IMG/VR virus record: IMGVR_UViG_3300046028_007828
Coordinates: 1-64,000 of that record
Direction: 5' to 3' (one strand)
Length of the DNA: 64,000 nucleotides
From: a virus
Part shown: piece after piece, positions 2,200 through 28,191 of the stretch
Numbering within the stretch: the stretch's first letter is position 1
How the letters are laid out: each line of letters opens with the position of its first letter
Translations under genes and position numbers: made by a program
Notes under the pieces: generated by a model
What the model saw: only the letters and a program-made list of their open reading frames with translations
Databases searched by the model: none
What the model was told of the DNA's origin: nothing

Positions 2200-5100
2200 A
2201 TGTCTAATTACACAGTATTTACAAATATAATAAGTGGAAGCGAGGCAGAGATAGCTTCGATCACAGGTTCATTGAGTGGAACTGCGTCATATTCAATTAC
2301 TGCAAGTTATGCGTTGAGTTATAGTGGCACAAGCGGAACTTCGGGTACCAATGGAACAAGCGGCACCAACGGGTCGTCCGGTACTTCCGGAACAAACGGG
2401 TCGAGTGGAACATCTGGTACGAATGGAACTTCGGGTACCAATGGGACAAGTGGTACCAACGGTTCGAGTGGAACATCTGGTACGAATGGAACTTCCGGCA
2501 CCAACGGAACGAGCGGCACCAATGGTTCAAGTGGCACGTCCGGCACCAACGGTACGTCGGGTACAAACGGTTCGAGCGGCACAAGTGGCACAAACGGTAC
2601 GTCGGGTACAAACGGTTCAAGTGGCACGTCCGGCACCAACGGTACGTCGGGTACAAACGGTTCGAGCGGCACGTCCGGCACCAACGGTACGTCGGGTACA
2701 AACGGTTCGAGCGGCACGTCCGGCACCAACGGAACGAGCGGCACCAATGGTTCAAGTGGAACGTCGGGTACGAATGGAACAAGCGGAACCTCTGGCACAA
2801 ACGGTTCAAGTGGCACGTCCGGCACAAACGGTTCAAGTGGCACGTCCGGCACAAACGGTTCAAGTGGCACGTCCGGCACAAACGGTTCAAGTGGCACGTC
2901 CGGCACAAACGGTTCAAGTGGCACGTCCGGCACCAACGGAACGAGCGGCACCAATGGTTCAAGTGGAACGTCGGGTACGAATGGAACAAGTGGAACCTCT
3001 GGCACAAACGGTTCAAGTGGAACATCTGGCACAAACGGTTCAAGTGGAACATCTGGTGCAGGATTTACAACAATCAATAGCCCAAGCATAGGACGAGTAA
3101 TATTGTCTGACGGCTCGGTTAATGCTGCCACCGCATCAGCAAATTTGATTTATTCAGATAATGTATTTACAATCACGGGAAGTATTTTGGCTAATGGTGG
3201 TGTCACAGCATCTTTGTTTGGTACGAGCAGTTATGCTATTCAAGCATTAAGTTCTTCATATGCTACAACAGCATCACTTGCATTTGATACAAATATAAGA
3301 ATAACAGACACGCTATTTGTTGATCCAGTAAATGGTAATGACTCAACGGCCAAATCGGGAAGTTTACAGTATACATACAGATCTATTGCTGCCGCTGAAA
3401 GTGCTGGTGCAGTGAGTCAATCTATATATCTTTTAAATGGTGTAGCAACAGCCTCGGGATTGATTAAGTCGTTGAACTATTATCTATCAGAAGGATCAAC
3501 ATTAAAACTAAATCCTTCTAGTGCAGTTCCATTGTTTTATCTTACTGGCTCAAGTGCCAGTACACTAATTCAAATAAAAGTATCTGGTCCCGGTACGATT
3601 GACGCAACAATTAACTACGCTCCGGCAAGTTCAAGAGCAACTTTGATAGGAATGTATTCCAACGGAGTCAACGGATCAACTATTTCTGGCGGATCTTATA
3701 TCAATATTGATGTATATAAGATTATTGCCGGTATGGACAGTACTAATTACAACAGTAGTGCATGTGCAATAGATATTGAAGGATCAAACTATAGCATAGG
3801 AGCAACAATCAATGCCCATACTTTTGTTTTGAATAAAGGCTTGACTGGAGTTTCATACCTAGGTGCTCCGCTCGTGAAAGGAATTGGTTTTGCAAATTAT
3901 TGCAATGTCAATATAGAACAGGCGTTTTTCAGTTCAAATGGTATAGTTAAAAGTACTGTGTCAAGTGGTGGAAGAACGGTAATAAACATAAGCCAACTTG
4001 TAGATTCTGACATGTTTACTATGATTGTTGCTGATCCTGCTGGTGCCAATATATCGTTGTCCATAGAAAATGCAATAAATTCAAGCGTTGTTACACCAAT
4101 TATTGCAAAAAATGGTGGTGGAAATATATACTTAAAACTTCCTAGAGATTATAGCATCGTTCAGACAAATAACAATCAACCATATGGAATGTGGCTTGAT
4201 ATAAATGGAACAGTTGCGCTGGAAGGTATGTTTAACTTCGATACAGTTTCTCAATACGATTCAAGTCCCGTGTTAATAACGGGAAGCAATGCGTCCAATG
4301 TCATTTTTAGAAATTCGTACATTGGGAGGCTTATTTCAACTGGATCAAGTCCTGTAATATATTTCGGTTCAGGAACAAGCAACAAAACTCTTACACTTCA
4401 AGATTGCCATATCTATTCCACAGGAAGTACATATTCAATCGACGCGGCCCAATCACAAAATGTAACATTGATGGGCGGCAGAACAACCAGCACATATCAA
4501 TTTGGTCCAAATATAAACGTTGTTGATGCAGCATATACACATGGATCATCTTCATATGCACTAACTGCAAGTTATGCTTTGAATGGTGGTGGTGGTAGCG
4601 GTACCAATGGCACAAGCGGAACGTCGGGTACCAATGGCACAAGCGGAACGAATGGCACAAGCGGAACGAATGGCACCAACGGTTCGAGTGGAACGTCTGG
4701 TACGAATGGGTCGTCGGGAACGTCTGGCACAAATGGAACAAGCGGTACCAACGGTTCGAGTGGAACGTCTGGTACCAATGGCACGAGCGGCACCAATGGG
4801 TCGTCGGGAACGTCTGGCACAAATGGAACAAGCGGTACCAACGGTTCGAGTGGAACGTCTGGTACGAATGGAACTTCTGGTACCAATGGGTCAAGTGGTA
4901 CAAGCGGTACCAACGGTTCGAGTGGAACGTCTGGTACCAATGGCACGAGCGGCACCAATGGGTCGTCGGGAACGTCTGGCACAAATGGAACAAGCGGTAC
5001 CAACGGTTCGAGTGGAACGTCTGGGACAAACGGGTCGTCCGGAACCTCGGGTACCAACGGAACAAGCGGCACGAATGGTTCGTCCGGTACATCTGGAACA

Positions 5101-22595: not shown

Positions 22596-24152
22596 TCAAC
22601 ACTTTTTCCACACCCACTTCGAATGCCCACAATCCCAAATCCGGTCGAACCCGTTCATTTTCATATTTTCCCATTCCGACAAGGCGGGGTCAAACGAAAG
22701 GAGTTTGTTGGCAAGTTTGTGTTTCTGCCACCCCTGTCTCCCGGACAGGGTAGAATATCCATCCACTGTGTAATAATATCCGGGGGGAGTCGTAGAAACG
22801 AAATTGAATCCCAACTTTAAATACACTTCACCCGAGAAGTATCGCCGGTCTCCGTATGTAACAATCGAATTAGGGTTGTGTTTTTTTACAAAATGAGAAA
22901 ACAGGCGAGAGCTTCCACCTATGACGGTGTGACCCAACTTAGAACAAAATCTGCTCATTTCCCACTCAACTGCCGTATCGAATCTGGATTTTACAAATGT
23001 CATGACCGACATCAACTCTTTATTGAAATACATTCCAAGTTTTATTGTGGCATGGTCGTTTCCTTGGATGTGATTTCTTGCCAGAAATTCCTTTTTTTCT
23101 TGAGATGATATATCTCGTATTTCACATTTTCGTGCGTGAATTTTTATATTACCCTTTATCAATATATTTCTGAGCACGGACTTGACCACTTCCTGTGAAT
23201 GATTCCATTCGTTTTCAAATATATGTATTAAGCGTATTCCTTTGAATGCTGCCCCGTTGGTCTTGTTGAGATGGTAATTTCTATTTTTTCCACCGGATAT
23301 TTCAGTATGCCAGTAAAGTCCATTACATTCTATACCAATCTTTTGATTTGGTAAATATATATCTATTTCTCTGGGAAATAATGTGGTTCTATCGTTGGGT
23401 ATCACGGGGTCATCCGGGACCAGTGTCTTGATAAATTCAAATATACTCGACTGAAAGTCCGACATAGTTTTGTCGCACTTAGAACATTTTATAGTTGCTC
23501 CATTATTAAGACTGTGTGCTTCTTCTCTATTGCATCTATTACATTTAAATGAATATGTCATTGTGGAGGAAACAGTCTTTACTCCAAAATAATCTTCTAT
23601 GTTAAATAACGGAACAAAATGTTTGAACCGCTCGGACGACACAAACTTTTTGAACATCGTTATTTTATGTGCATCTTTAAATTCACTCGATTTTGACGCA
23701 TGTGCAACTCCATATTTTATAGCACATGTCTTTTTGTATTTTTCTTCGTACTCTTTGGATTTTCTGTAATTATCAACCCCATATTTTTCTATCATGGTGG
23801 ATTTCATTTGTGTCGGGTTATTGTAATTTTCGTCACCATAACGAGCGGCAAGGGTTTTTTTAACTTTTTCTACGTGGTCTGGCATCCCACCGGCCCATTC
23901 CACGCCGTGTGTTGCCATCATCGCGGCTTTGTAATTCTCCTTGACCGCGTCGGTTTTCATAGCATGTCCACCATATCTAGCGTCGAAAGTTTTAGCAACT
24001 CCGAGTTTATTTTTCTCTTTTACCTCCGGAGAGTTACATGCGCAGACGCGAGAACAATACATTTTCTCTTTCCGTTTTTCGCACGTAAATTCCGATTTGC
24101 AGGTCGGGCAAATCTTGTGCAATGTATTATTTGGGTTCTTTGGTCTGGCCAT
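22596..24152 (-). CDS. Homing-endonuclease-like protein (Cys motifs, KYG repeats, PD-(D/E)xK domain, conserved C-terminal domain)
   Basis: CPTC..YCS..C; repeated (K/R)YG; EIDIYLP..KIGIECNGLYWH; IRLIHIFENEW; C-terminal FL..NH.QG, WE.SRF, IWDCG..KW. ATG at 24152. Confidence 0.7.
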   Translation of the reverse strand: MARPKNPNNTLHKICPTCKSEFTCEKRKEKMYCSRVCACNSPEVKEKNKLGVAKTFDARYGGHAMKTDAVKENYKAAMMATHGVEWAGGMPDHVEKVKKTLAARYGDENYNNPTQMKSTMIEKYGVDNYRKSKEYEEKYKKTCAIKYGVAHASKSSEFKDAHKITMFKKFVSSERFKHFVPLFNIEDYFGVKTVSSTMTYSFKCNRCNREEAHSLNNGATIKCSKCDKTMSDFQSSIFEFIKTLVPDDPVIPNDRTTLFPREIDIYLPNQKIGIECNGLYWHTEISGGKNRNYHLNKTNGAAFKGIRLIHIFENEWNHSQEVVKSVLRNILIKGNIKIHARKCEIRDISSQEKKEFLARNHIQGNDHATIKLGMYFNKELMSVMTFVKSRFDTAVEWEMSRFCSKLGHTVIGGSSRLFSHFVKKHNPNSIVTYGDRRYFSGEVYLKLGFNFVSTTPPGYYYTVDGYSTLSGRQGWQKHKLANKLLSFDPALSEWENMKMNGFDRIWDCGHSKWVWKKC

Positions 24153-24286
24153 AAGGTTCGTAAGCAATAAAACAGTATATGTTTTTTTGATAATGTCAAC
24201 ATATTTTTTGTTTAATTATTATTTATAATACGATGCGATTACGCAGGCAGAAATGAATAACCAAACAATTAACCCTATATAACACC

Positions 24287-24781
24287 ATGGCAGAACTACT
24301 AGATGCAAATTCTATATTTTTTACAGCGTATGAACCAAAAGTTCAAAACCGCTTTATTATCGAGATAGACGGAATTCCCGCATATCTTATCAAAGCGGCG
24401 GCGCGTCCAACTATTGTAAACAACTCAATTACCCTAGACCACATCAACTTGAAGCGCAAGCTCAAGGGAAAAAGTGAATGGTCCGACGTTGAAGTGACAC
24501 TGTATGACGCTATTGTTCCGTCCGGCGCTCAAGCCTGTATGGAATGGGTGCGTCTTGCTCACGAATCCGTGACCGGTCGTAACGGCTATGCGGCATTCTA
24601 TAAAAAGGATGTCAATATCGTTGTATTGGGTCCGGTCGGCGATAAAATCGAAAATTGGCAATTGAAGGGCGCATTCCCATCAACAGTCAATTTCAATGGC
24701 ACGGGACTTGATTGGAGCGCACAAGAAGCTCTGACCATCAACATGACGCTCACTTACGACTACGCGATACTTCAATATTGA
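24287..24781 (+). CDS. Tail tube protein (T4 gp19-like)
   Basis: EPKVQNRF, KGKSEW, LYD.IVPSGAQA.MEWVR, FYKKD, GPVGD..E.W.LKGAFP, L.YDYAILQY. Confidence 0.9.
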   Translation: MAELLDANSIFFTAYEPKVQNRFIIEIDGIPAYLIKAAARPTIVNNSITLDHINLKRKLKGKSEWSDVEVTLYDAIVPSGAQACMEWVRLAHESVTGRNGYAAFYKKDVNIVVLGPVGDKIENWQLKGAFPSTVNFNGTGLDWSAQEALTINMTLTYDYAILQY

Positions 24782-24803
24782 TATAATAAGAAGAATAAGT
24801 TTC

Positions 24804-24832
24804 AAGTCCCCTATGAAAATAGGGGATTTTTT
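24804..24832 (+). terminator. Terminator after the tail tube gene
   Basis: TCCCCTAT-GAAA-ATAGGGGA followed by a T-run. Confidence 0.8.
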
Positions 24833-24833
24833 A

Positions 24834-24865
24834 TTGACATATACAAAATTATCCGCATACTTATA
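24834..24865 (+). promoter_or_regulatory. Promoter(s) for the release factor leader ORF
   Basis: TTGACA(24834)-N16-CATACT, overlapping a TACTTATA copy of the putative late motif (24858), about 10 nt before ATG 24872. Confidence 0.6.
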
Positions 24866-24871
24866 TTCGCT

Positions 24872-25613
24872 ATGAAGACACAAACAACATATTACTCGAA
24901 TAACTCGGGCAACCCATCGGGAGGCTCTGCTAGCTCTTGGGGGTCACTTTGACGCGAGAGGTGTGTTGGTTGAAGTAATTTCTGGCGAGGGCGGGGATGA
25001 TTCAAAATTATTCACCGAGCAACTGTTCATAGCTTATCTGGCGTTCATGGAAAAAAATGGACTGGAAGCTGAGTTGGAAGAAACCGGACCCAGCAAATTC
25101 AGTTTTGTGTGTTCGGATATGAAAGCTGAATCTTTGTTTGATTCCGAGACTGGGACGCATTGTGTACAACGCATTCCAAAGAACGACCGAGGTGGTAGGA
25201 AACATACATCTTACGTTGCCGTGACCGTAACGAGGTTACTGCAACAGAACAATGAAATGAAGGAATCTGATTTGGAAGAATCATTCCAACGAGGACATGG
25301 AAACGGTGGACAACACCAGAACAAAACGTCAAGTGCAGTGCGACTGAAACACATCCCAACTGGGTTGGAAGTTTTCATTAACGGACGAAGTCAGCAAGCC
25401 AATCGAAGAACTGCCAGACTGTGTTTGGCGGGTAAAATAAAGCAGTTTTCGTCCAAGTCGGGTAATTCTACTAATTATAGCGGCGCTGGTCGCGGAGATA
25501 AGGTCCGCACATACAACTATGCTGATAACCGAATTACTGACCACAGAAATGGAGCTAAGTGTCACATGATAGACAGTGTTATGAAAGAAGGAAGATTTGA
25601 ACTTTTACGCTAA
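24872..25613 (+). CDS. Class I peptide chain release factor, RF1-like, lacking domain 1; predicted to be made by +1 frameshift at 24947-24953 (about 246 aa)
   Basis: Leader MKTQTTYYSNNSGNPSGGSASSWGSL* (24872-24952). The +1 frame continues DARGVLVEVISGEGGDDSKLF...GTHCVQRIPKNDRGGRKHTS...GGQHQNKTSSAVRLKHIPTG...RSQ..N...VRTYNY..NRITDHR. Confidence 0.9.
24939..24953 (+). promoter_or_regulatory. prfB-type programmed +1 frameshift signal
   Basis: GGGGG TCA CTT TGA C: internal SD-like run, 3-nt spacer, then CTT-TGA-C in the leader frame; same layout as E. coli prfB AGGGGG TAT CTT TGA C. Confidence 0.85.
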
Positions 25614-25766
25614 TTCTTTCTTATATTCATTTTGGACTTGACGGAAGTATATAACACTGTGTACAATACTTGAGTTATAACGACAGCAACTAAATAAATT
25701 CAGTTAACTAGCATTAAAAATAAAATAAGTTATATTTATATATACTAAAAATAATAACAACTTAAA

Positions 25767-26015
25767 ATGAATAAATTTGAATTAAAATCTTTAATAAAAG
25801 AGGTTATAAAAGAAGTGAGGAATAAGTCAGAAACAAAACAAAAATTGAATAGAGTTGTTAGTTCATATATTACTTCTCCCGGAGAAAAAAATCCTTGCTT
25901 ATATATTAACATTCAGATTGAAGCAAAAGATATGGATTGTGCAGAAAAATGTAGAAAAGATATATTATCAGATTTAGAAAAAAATCACGACATAAAAATC
26001 CAAAAGGAAACTTAA
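25767..26015 (+). CDS. Hypothetical protein with K.ELK.LI.E N-terminus (possible head-internal protein)
   Basis: MNKFELKSLIKEVIKE; TATTTATA motif at 25733. Confidence 0.55.
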   Translation: MNKFELKSLIKEVIKEVRNKSETKQKLNRVVSSYITSPGEKNPCLYINIQIEAKDMDCAEKCRKDILSDLEKNHDIKIQKET

Positions 26016-26016
26016 T

Positions 26017-26280
26017 ATGAAACACGATGAATTAAAGAAATTTATACGGGAAACTATTAAAGACGCAATTGATGAATTTGCACCCCTCGGTGTTGCAGAA
26101 GAAGATATGTTACAGGAAAAATCTCCTCCGGGGTTTCCAGAGAAACTGCATGATAAATTACTGAGTCAATACGATGGAGATGAGGATAAAGCGTATGCCA
26201 CAATGTGGAAAATTTTTTATGCTAAGAAACGGGGTCATAAAAAGATGAATGAAATGTGGATGGCTTGGGAAAATAAATAA
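26017..26280 (+). CDS. Hypothetical protein with the same N-terminal motif
   Basis: MKHDELKKFIRETIKD; EKSPPGF...KAYATMWK. Confidence 0.55.
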   Translation: MKHDELKKFIRETIKDAIDEFAPLGVAEEDMLQEKSPPGFPEKLHDKLLSQYDGDEDKAYATMWKIFYAKKRGHKKMNEMWMAWENK

Positions 26281-26283
26281 AAA

Positions 26284-26607
26284 ATGTCATTCACAGATTA
26301 CAATATTGACGTTGTTCCAATCAGAATCGGCGGATTTATGATGGATAATTTAGGACCGGAAAAAATAAATTCAAGTGTTCCTACTTTTAATATCGGAGAC
26401 ACAGTTACATTCGTAGCCGAAGAAAAGAGGTATTGTTTAGATTATTTTGCAGTGTTTCCACCAAATAAAATTGTAAATCAATCAGATTGGTTTTTAACTA
26501 TGTTTGGATTTTATGCGTCATTTAACCCAAGAATTCAAGTCGAAATGAACACCGCTGCTGACCACACCGGTCAAAACTCGGGAGTAAGAGTAGTATACAG
26601 ACCATGA
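26284..26607 (+). CDS. Hypothetical protein
   Basis: 107 aa, tightly packed, ATGA overlap with the next gene. Confidence 0.5.
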   Translation: MSFTDYNIDVVPIRIGGFMMDNLGPEKINSSVPTFNIGDTVTFVAEEKRYCLDYFAVFPPNKIVNQSDWFLTMFGFYASFNPRIQVEMNTAADHTGQNSGVRVVYRP

Positions 26608-27245
26608 ATAAATCACAACTATCAGAAATTATAACCAATATTGTAAAACGTAAATTGGCGGAACACAAAATCGGGCTAAATGAGTTGGAGAACATGCTCA
26701 CACAGATGGGAGCGCCAACACAGGCACCGTCCCCGGAGGACAAAAAACTGCAAAAATCCCAGAGTGAATTGGTGAAAGCTCAAAAGGATAAAGAAAAAAA
26801 TTTAGCAAAGATTGCAAAGTTGGATGCCAGCACTTTAAGTGCAAAAACCCGGGCTCAACTTCACGTCAATAAGGCCGAGGAACGTATCGGAACCTCTCAA
26901 GATAAAGTCGCCAGAGACGCAGAGACCGCAGCGAGGAAAGCAAAAGCAACTGGGCAGATATCCGCCGCGCAATTACCATTACAAGAAACTGAGACACCGA
27001 GCAAAACTCATAAGTGGAAAGATGGAACCTCCATCCCAGTTAATTCCCAAGGCGCACCAATTGAACAAGGATGGCAATCTTTGGGATATGCCAACGGTTG
27101 GTCAAGTAGCCCGGAAGACAAACAAAAGTACGACCAAAATAAAAATAAAATGTGGTATACCGCAAGACTGAATACAGATGGAACTCAGGAGGCTATATAT
27201 TGCCCAGAAGCCAAATTATGGTATTTGGTTGACTCTGGCGGGTAA
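26604..27245 (+). CDS. Hypothetical protein with the shared N-terminal motif
   Basis: MNKSQLSEIITNIVK; ends YLVDSGG. Confidence 0.55.
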   Translation: MNKSQLSEIITNIVKRKLAEHKIGLNELENMLTQMGAPTQAPSPEDKKLQKSQSELVKAQKDKEKNLAKIAKLDASTLSAKTRAQLHVNKAEERIGTSQDKVARDAETAARKAKATGQISAAQLPLQETETPSKTHKWKDGTSIPVNSQGAPIEQGWQSLGYANGWSSSPEDKQKYDQNKNKMWYTARLNTDGTQEAIYCPEAKLWYLVDSGG

Positions 27246-27264
27246 TTTAATAACATAGAAACAT

Positions 27265-28191
27265 ATGAAAAAATCAGATCTTAAATTGTTGATTAAGAGT
27301 ATAGTGACAGAAATATATTCTTCTAAACGCGAAAGTTTAGAAGAGTCGGAAGCTCTATCTGGGTTTGAAGAAACTTCCGATAAGGCCGAAAATACGGAGA
27401 TGGTGGTTGATGATAAAAAATTGACTATTGTCACAGAACCAAAAGAAAAAGAAGAAGGTAAAAAACTCCCGGTAGTTAAGAAACCGGCGACTCCCAAGAT
27501 TGTAAAAGAAGATATTCTAGGCATGATTCGCGAAGCACTCGAACAACGACGAGTTGAAGAAATGGCAAAGCGTCCATCCAAATTTGATGCCGCAACTGGA
27601 ATCCTCGACGCTTCCGTAAGTCCGGACCGTCGTAAGTCCGACCCAACATCTCCCACAGGATATCGGCTAGTGGGAGCATTCGAATTAAAAGACCCAGTAA
27701 CAAAGAAAGTTACTCAGGTTGTACCGGATGGAACGCCAATCATGGCACCCTCTGCACAGACTCAAAAGAAATTGGGGACAGTCGCCCCAAAAACTCCGCC
27801 ATCAACTGTAGCGGGAAGCGGGTCGTCGATATTATCTCCACAGACCGTTGCCGCTCAGTCCTCGGCCGATTCGTCGGACGACGGCGAGGAGGAAGACCTA
27901 AATATGGGAGTTCCACCGGAAGGAAAACCAAACTCAAAGGTCAAAGTTACATTGGACGGAAAGTCTATCGGACAATTTAATTTTCGTTTGCCTTCTGGTA
28001 AGATTAGTAGTGATAATATGGAAACGAATCTTTACCGCACCGAACTTCCGGATTTGCCGCTCGATAAGTCTGTGGGTTCAATGTACGAGAATATGGAAAA
28101 TATGTTCTTCGATGACAAACTGCCAGCTAACGCTACATTGAATCTTTTCACCGCAAAGAATGCGACTGGTAAGACCATTATGGCTAAATAA
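27265..28191 (+). CDS. Charged hypothetical protein with the shared N-terminal motif
   Basis: MKKSDLKLLIKSIVTE; internal second copy KEDILGMIREALE. Confidence 0.55.
   Translation: MKKSDLKLLIKSIVTEIYSSKRESLEESEALSGFEETSDKAENTEMVVDDKKLTIVTEPKEKEEGKKLPVVKKPATPKIVKEDILGMIREALEQRRVEEMAKRPSKFDAATGILDASVSPDRRKSDPTSPTGYRLVGAFELKDPVTKKVTQVVPDGTPIMAPSAQTQKKLGTVAPKTPPSTVAGSGSSILSPQTVAAQSSADSSDDGEEEDLNMGVPPEGKPNSKVKVTLDGKSIGQFNFRLPSGKISSDNMETNLYRTELPDLPLDKSVGSMYENMENMFFDDKLPANATLNLFTAKNATGKTIMAK

Follow-up and report, generated by a model that had tools for sequence, protein, structure and literature searches.

A short, frameshift-gated RF1-type release factor gene in a lake-water phage, with asparagine at the position of a stop-codon-reading threonine

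Thr186 of bacterial release factor 1 (RF1), a residue essentially invariant in bacteria, is well established as a determinant of how stop codons are read. Other GGQ proteins are built differently, with ArfB and ICT1 consisting of the GGQ domain alone and a basic C-terminal tail that probes the empty mRNA channel. PrfH, in turn, rescues ribosomes containing damaged 16S rRNA and is, to our knowledge, always encoded by a gene adjoining rtcB. In RF1, Gly116, Glu119 and Thr186 bond U1, Thr186 also bonds the second base, which stacks on His193, and the third base is bonded by Gln181 and Thr194 (PMC3974865), such that Thr186 offers the only side chain in RF1 that reads position 2 by hydrogen bonding. 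Domain 1 of the protein, according to the account of Mora 2003 given in PMC1586002, contacts RF3 and L11 and is dispensable for codon-specific release. As for expression, programmed frameshifting is not reported for prfA, while among 8,164 prfB frameshift motifs, TAG was found in none (PMC12421855). Vertebrate mitochondrial mtRF1, as described in two reports (PMC3418547, PMC9613700), is an RF1-derived paralogue in which function was changed via a remodelled recognition loop. Finally, recoded phages (Lak, crAss-like, Jade) carry class-I release factors of their own (bioRxiv 10.1101/2021.08.26.457843).

The stretch of DNA analysed here (hereafter, the window) covers the initial 64 kb of an IMG/VR virus record that is 76.5 kb long and ~32% complete. 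The window has a G+C content of 41% and comes from a lake-water phage, with near-identical copies of the gene stretch considered below being present in over 20 metagenome runs from lake water. Among RNA runs, two contained trace shares only. Positions 24951..25613 (+ strand) encode, in the +1 frame relative to a short leader, a release-factor body of 220 residues that starts at a GAC codon (24951), ends with TAA and comprises domains 2, 3 and 4 only; together with the 26-residue leader, to which the body is joined through a +1 frameshift, the full product contains 246 residues. Pfam detected the C-terminal half of PCRF (profile positions 98-194 only) and RF-1. The NCBIfam RF1 models were matched from position 102/110 onward only, with scores of 161.8 and 151.4 bits, both below the respective cut-offs (NF001859, 400; TIGR00019, 423). 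Still, RF1 was the best-scoring family, given an RF2 score of 120 bits against 162 bits for RF1. The absence of domain 1, as reported in the first-pass annotation of this DNA, was thus confirmed. The possibility that this domain is encoded separately was rejected, as no PCRF match was detected among the neighbouring genes and no second release factor-like match was found in the 76.5 kb of the record. Because domain 1 has been lost, the factor should be independent of RF3. Relative to Thermus RF1, the protein is also ~20 residues shorter at the C-terminus and ~7 residues shorter before the switch loop.

The AlphaFold2 model of the protein (pLDDT 86.8; pTM 0.83) folds as a class-I release factor, in line with the original assignment. 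When this model was used in a Foldseek search, the top matches were RF1 and RF2 chains (probability 1.0), with TM values of 0.80-0.84 to the free, closed forms. The architecture, gate and fold are those of a minimal 246-residue class-I release factor, comprising a 26-residue leader and domains 2/4 and 3.

A phmmer alignment to Thermus thermophilus RF1 (4v63-type chain) contained no gap through the decoding region. In this alignment, Gly14 corresponds to Gly116, Asp17 to Glu119, Gln73 to Gln181, Pro76-Lys77-Asn78 to Pro184-Val185-Thr186, and His85-Thr86 to His193-Thr194. The tip of helix alpha-5 (Gly14-Gly15-Asp16-Asp17) is encoded at 24990..25001 (+), and the recognition loop, CVQRIPKNDRGGRKHTS (residues 71-87), at 25161..25211 (+). 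Within this loop, the PKN tripeptide is specified by CCA AAG AAC (25176-25184, +). The catalytic GGQ motif (Gly119-Gly120-Gln121; 25305..25313, +) is invariant in alignments A1 and A2. As such, the protein shares with RF1 domains 2/4 and 3, the Gln of VQR, Pro184, His193-Thr194, GGQ and the overall fold, but differs in lacking domain 1 and in presenting Asn for Thr186, Asp for the U1-contacting Glu119 and Lys/Arg for Ile192. Judging from the alignment, all RF1 decoding residues are conserved except Thr186 and Glu119. The earlier description of the loop as PKN, corresponding neither to PxT nor to SPF, therefore held; by comparison, all 11 of the RF2 references contained LVR and SPF rather than VQR and PKN. 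The replacement of Glu119, a detail added here to that description, was considered as a second special feature and rejected as such, since a GGxD tip was present in all short factors compared (see below), as well as in some canonical RF2 proteins encoded in Pirellulaceae/Planctomycetes and Obscuribacterales genomes.

The leader ORF (24872..24952, +) contains 26 sense codons in the 0 frame (translation, MKTQTTYYSNNSGNPSGGSASSWGSL) and ends with CTT and an in-frame TGA. The end of the leader, reading TGG GGG TCA CTT TGA C, contains a prfB-type +1 frameshift cassette (24939..24953, +) composed of GGGGG (24939-24943), a 3-nt spacer (TCA), CTT (24947-24949), TGA (24950-24952) and then C. Further upstream within the leader lies a second Shine-Dalgarno (SD)-like sequence, GGGAGG (24919..24924, +), with GGGAGG or GGAGG being found at the equivalent site in five related loci (L002, L191-L194). 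Contigs assembled from four lake-water metagenome runs, two of which are not flagged as a possible source of the window, agree exactly across 24800-25650, with no indel, so that the split frame is genuine and assembly error could be excluded. The layout, i.e., GGGGG, a 3-nt spacer, CUU UGA C and a leader of ~25 codons, is identical to that of prfB and predicts the same shift, yet the product encoded behind the gate is RF1-like and not of the SPF type; prfA, for its part, has no such reported cassette (PMC12421855). In one close relative also containing PKN (L191, 880-915), the shift site reads GTT TGA (Val) and is preceded by the same TGGGGG, with TCG as spacer.

Directly upstream of the release-factor gene is a T4 gp19-type tail-tube gene (24287-24781; PF06841 match). 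The 90-nt gap between its stop codon (24781) and the leader ATG (24872) contains an intrinsic terminator (24804..24829, +; an 11-pair stem followed by a T run), which makes the release-factor gene a separate transcription unit, and a candidate sigma-70-like promoter (TTGACA-16 nt-CATACT; 24834..24861, +) that matched the consensus at 10 of 12 positions in a scan and to which function is assigned by prediction. The -10-like CATACT ends 10 nt upstream of the leader ATG, no SD sequence is present in this interval, and the spacing of ATACTT and ATG is retained in the nearest relatives (L050, L191-L193). Such proximity of the putative -10 element to the ATG suggests that the predicted mRNA is leaderless or nearly so. 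Downstream, four consecutive small to medium-sized ORFs (starting at 25767, 26017, 26604 and 27265; region 25767-28191) share the N-terminal pattern M-x-K-x-x-L-K/S-x-x-I...I-K/T-E, with no Pfam match having been obtained for any of the four.

A search of 5.8 billion proteins revealed several hundred short (~200-250 residues) relatives, with no full-length relative appearing among the best 120 matches. In IMG/VR, 49 loci of this family were identified, mostly on contigs of 100-570 kb, while in GTDB species genomes, full-length matches were obtained in Pirellulaceae, Mariniblastus, several Obscuribacterales and one Bacteriovoracaceae MAG. The short RF1-type family thus extends across huge phages and several lineages of bacteria. 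The annotated flanks of the bacterial copies are cellular (histidine kinase, thioredoxin, MsrAB, MetRS, TnpB transposase). In each of the five bacterial genomes tested, both a canonical RF1 scoring above cut-off and RF2 were also present, such that the short factor represents a third release-factor paralogue in those bacteria; the phage genomes tested contained the short factor only. The family can hence be described as a third, domain-1-less, frameshift-gated release factor of huge phages and several bacterial lineages. The window protein displays the traits of the family, taken from the invariant columns of 38-sequence alignment A1, namely, a length of ~210-250 residues, no domain 1, a GEGGxD tip, a VQR...HTS head and GGQ.

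Maximum-likelihood analysis of 118 sequences placed RF2 in a clade (support 100), and the short factors formed a clade apart from RF2 and adjoining RF1 (SH-aLRT 85; 95 for a core of 85 rows). The window protein fell in a 32-row clade (support 100; stem 0.77) that includes IMG/VR loci L002 and L003. The kinship with RF1 seen in the first-pass annotation was therefore retained, now with a place inside the short-factor clade. The window gene resembles other members of the family in length, missing domain 1, GGxD tip, gate position and placement in the tree; most members contain P-P-T-E, whereas the window gene and its clade contain P-x-N-D/G. A literature search, in which subscription journals were mostly uncovered, turned up no published account of the short family and none of a naturally occurring release factor with PxN. 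As far as could be found, then, the window gene is a loop variant in an undescribed short RF1-type family.

Of 54 family loci, 45 contain a CTT-T(GA/AG/AA) gate at the equivalent point, just before the start of domain 2. The gate stop codon is UGA in 25, UAG in 19 and UAA in one, setting the family apart from prfB, where motifs with TAG are lacking. Leaders starting with ATG, spanning ~8-32 codons and ending in CUU and a stop codon are present in most relatives, and an SD-like run is often seen 3-4 nt upstream of the gate. The 19 CUU-UAG gates, each preceding an RF1-like factor and mostly having C as the next base, occur in L058-L068 (bacterial MAGs) and in L012, L018, L020, L024, L027, L028, L035 and L045, with the Obscuribacterales copies reading GA CTT TAG CC; such a gate can be seen as the prfB device in an RF1-specific form. 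In phages with a UAG gate, TAG accounted for 17-33% of stop codons, as compared to 0-21% in those gated by UGA (Mann-Whitney p = 0.004, n = 6 v 10, uncorrected for relatedness; G006-G020, L156-L190). Five viral loci (L019, L041, L042, L044, L049; each at ~3094-3105) contain no CUU-stop gate and start directly with Met. Each contains one in-frame stop codon (TGA in four, TAG in one) at about codon 46 and at the same alignment position, often Trp in canonical RF1. These sequences could reflect either TGA/TAG-recoded phages or a gate of the read-through type.

The rarity of the Asn-type loop was next considered. Among 89 cluster representatives of canonical RF1, the tripeptide was PxT in 88 and SKT in one, PxN was found in none, and the residue after the tripeptide was Glu in 88; in a second count, Thr was found in 95 of 95. 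This bears out the proposal of the first-pass annotation that PKN is a departure from bacterial RF1, a loop common in such proteins having been named beforehand as the finding that would speak against it. By contrast, roughly one in four short factors contains PxN. In this family, PxT/S loops (n = 130) are of constant length, with Pro as the middle residue in 105 and Glu as the next residue in 129. In PxN loops (n = 45), the middle residue is free (S, K, P, A and others), the next residue is Asp in 21, Gly in 15, Glu in seven and Ser in two, and 16 are one residue shorter. Comparison of the loops thus indicates that Asn is accompanied by a re-fitted loop, with PPT-E becoming P-x-N-D/G. The second half of the PxN loop (D, G-G-R-K/R, HTS-Y) is closer to that of RF2 (D..G-R-R, HTS-F) than to that of RF1 (E..G-R-I, HTS-T). 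The change also differs from that in mtRF1, where insertions were introduced into the loop and domain 1 was kept; here, a point substitution is combined with a change of neighbouring residue.

On a tree built with the loop columns omitted, Asn and Thr/Ser were interchanged at least nine times; support is weak for many of its branches, but five or six of the changes fall in separately supported clades. Within the 32-row clade of the window protein, 26 contain PxN and a PxT group is nested; two proteins sharing 83% identity contain PHT (P0022) and PPN (P0023). At the same time, Asn78 is invariant across the ten closest relatives (70-78% identity), and comparison with the L002 orthologue yielded a dN of 0.19 with saturated synonymous sites. 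Taken together, these comparisons show the Asn-type loop as a recurrent and selected variant confined to the short family, one present in dozens of relatives alongside close relatives that keep Thr. Among 15 copies from bacterial or archaeal MAG contigs, Asn was found in none. A link between PxN and UGA gates was considered and rejected: PxN is found behind UGA gates in the window and in L002, L007, L010, L023 and L192-194, as well as behind UAG gates in L012/L201 (PDN) and L210 (PKN), while PxT occurs behind both UGA gates (at least 20 loci) and UAG gates.

The phage uses the standard genetic code. An alternative code was ruled out, as codes 11, 4 and 15 gave equal coding density, and the 16 phage genomes sampled use all three stop codons. 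In the record, ORFs end in TAA in 58 of 75 cases, in TGA in 15 and in TAG in two, with TAA terminating ~77-80% of the phage genes; among ORFs of at least 100 residues, TAG is used in 0 of 66. The share of TAG is 4% in the L002 phage, the nearest relative, and 12-23% in other PxN phages. Avoidance of TAG was rejected as a trait of PKN phages, given that TAG is used in the PKN contigs L191, L193, L194 and L050. The release factors of recoded phages, in contrast to that considered here, accompany reassignment of TAG or TGA and suppressor tRNAs. A cluster of 14 tRNA genes, located outside the window (G000:C1:74231-76506), includes no identifiable suppressor among those 14. The cluster does encode both tRNAs that would pair in a CUU-to-UUU slip, Leu(UAG) and Phe(GAA), along with a tRNA-like gene (75200-75269) having a 6-nt anticodon loop that ARAGORN could not assign.

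The explanation favoured here, although given only an even chance of being correct, is that the window gene encodes a stop-codon-dependent, gated, RF3-independent auxiliary terminator in which Asn serves as an alternative reader of U-A. Once produced from the gene's own promoter, the mRNA would be translated through the 26-codon leader; should free host RF2 become limiting, slow termination at UGA would cause ribosomes to pause on CUU-UGA-C, slip into the +1 frame and produce the factor. The factor would then enter the A site at stop codons, relying on an RF1-type pocket comprising Gly14, Asp17, Gln73, His85 and Thr86, with the carboxamide of Asn substituting for the Thr hydroxyl in bonding bases 1 and 2. 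That carboxamide could act at once as donor to O4 of U1 and as acceptor from N6 of A2, as does the hydroxyl of Thr. The loop would have been re-fitted around the longer Asn side chain, with P-x-N-D/G replacing P-P-T-E, at times in a version one residue shorter, and the shorter neighbouring residue (Asp or Gly) presumably making room. GGQ would release the peptide, after which the factor, lacking domain 1, would depart without RF3. The codons read would most likely include UAA and probably UAG, providing added termination capacity to a phage that ends most of its genes in TAA. By sparing RF2 part of its work at UAA, the factor would also relieve the pause at UGA, thereby closing a feedback loop indirectly and with specificity unchanged. 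In the 'communicating vessels' model, the sharing of UAA likewise lets an RF1-type factor free RF2 for UGA (PMC7530605). Since UAA is read by both host factors, extra capacity for this codon would free RF2, and the feedback thus needs no change in specificity.

Equivalence of Asn and Thr draws support from the repeated changes on the tree, from the closely related PHT/PPN pair and from the presence of PxN and PxT alike behind both kinds of gate. Were the two states indeed to read the same codons, the Asn-type loop would represent a second structural solution for the recognition of U-A. Several points weigh against such equivalence. Because Thr186 is invariant in canonical RF1, a truly equivalent Asn would be expected there too, and the confinement of Asn to the short factors hints at some other constraint or role. 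The RF2-like half of the loop after the tripeptide and the finding that all readable gates in the 32-row clade are UGA also argue against it. Moreover, as the phage nearly avoids TAG, the reading of UAG cannot explain retention of the gene.

The same observations could be explained if specificity had changed, a possibility regarded as unlikely though deserving serious consideration, in which the P-x-N-D/G loop accepts G at position 2 and the factor reads UAA and UGA or all three stop codons. The UGA gate of this phage would then form a direct autoregulatory loop, as in prfB. An amide group can, in principle, serve as a hydrogen-bond donor or acceptor. Consistent with changed specificity, the replaced residue is the one that bonds base 2 in RF1 (PMC3974865), the loop becomes RF2-like after the tripeptide, every readable gate in the clade is UGA, the phage ends its genes in TAA and TGA with almost no TAG, and PxN is absent from the 89-95 canonical RF1 proteins counted. 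Nonetheless, the relaxed specificity put forward in the first-pass annotation, which would have turned the UGA gate into a true feedback loop, was not borne out by the comparison. Since PxN lies behind both UGA and UAG gates, as does PxT, the distribution of gates does not support the idea that Asn reads UGA; the interchange of Thr and Asn is shallow, occurring even between proteins sharing 83% identity; other contigs with PKN make use of TAG; and, as Gln181 is retained, a factor also accepting G as the second base would be at risk of terminating at UGG, an activity that is toxic in evolved RF2 (PMC7530605). More doubtful still is the proposal that P-x-N-D/G confers a range belonging to neither RF1 nor RF2, be this UAA and UGA on an RF1 scaffold or all stop codons. 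If true, the short family would comprise natural variants in specificity, interconverted by single-base changes (ACN<->AAY), and would offer a ready-made series for studying how the second base of stop codons is recognised. Should the codons read prove to differ, it would follow that one base change can shift the specificity of a bacterial release factor, with bearing on genetic-code engineering and on the management of host termination by phages.

That the protein is instead a codon-independent ribosome rescue factor of the PrfH/ArfB kind, forming part of a phage RNA-repair toolkit, is improbable. Like the window protein, PrfH (RFH; TIGR03072) lacks domain 1, contains GGQ and is of similar size (PMC1586002), and the tripeptide of the short family is more variable than that of RF1 (PxT, PxS, PxN, PHL, PKG, GPT, SPT). 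In addition, a Rnl2-type RNA ligase (PF09414; 21208-22227, -) is encoded ~3 kb from the release-factor gene, with the order of ligase, tail tube and release factor being retained in L002 (ligase at 902-1933). However, the whole codon-reading head is conserved (Q181, P184, H/Q193, T194, S195), which favours a stop-codon-dependent factor over such a rescuer. Moreover, scores of 62.5 bits for PrfH (cut-off 166.65) and 35 bits for ArfB (cut-off 100; residues 98-133 only) did not reach the respective thresholds, the loop of E. coli PrfH, used for comparison, is quite different, and the window protein, unlike ArfB and ICT1, contains a full domain 2/4. Conserved linkage to RNA-repair genes was rejected, having been seen only in L002: the genes adjoining the release factor are the tail-tube gene and small ORFs, the sole nearby ligase is on the opposite strand, inspection of the annotated neighbours revealed no RtcB partner, the other 40-odd family loci have no neighbouring gene in common with this one, and annotated bacterial copies lie amid unrelated housekeeping genes. 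The rescue function raised in the first-pass annotation is thus unlikely, leaving that interpretation, overall, supported in part. A 523-residue DUF7487-encoding gene (22596-24167), found between the ligase and the tail-tube and release-factor genes, is missing from L002.

Very improbable is that the factor is directed at the host, either as a sloppy terminator acting at near-stop sense codons such as UGG or as an A-site competitor displacing RF2 at UGA: although it is phage-borne, gated, presumably free of RF3 recycling and relaxed in its recognition loop, and although sloppy RF2 variants are toxic (PMC7530605), GGQ is intact and the protein is hence no mere blocker, the phage's own genes containing Trp codons would be hit as well, and short factors are kept as bacterial chromosomal genes, all with T/S-type or other non-Asn loops.

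Other unusual loops were noted in the short family (among L068, L060, L062-L065, L024 and L047). A Planctomycetota MAG encodes VKR-V-SPT, combining SPF with PxT. Bacteriovoracaceae copies contain GPT and those of Obscuribacterales VTR...PAS, while PHL and PKG were found in phage short factors.
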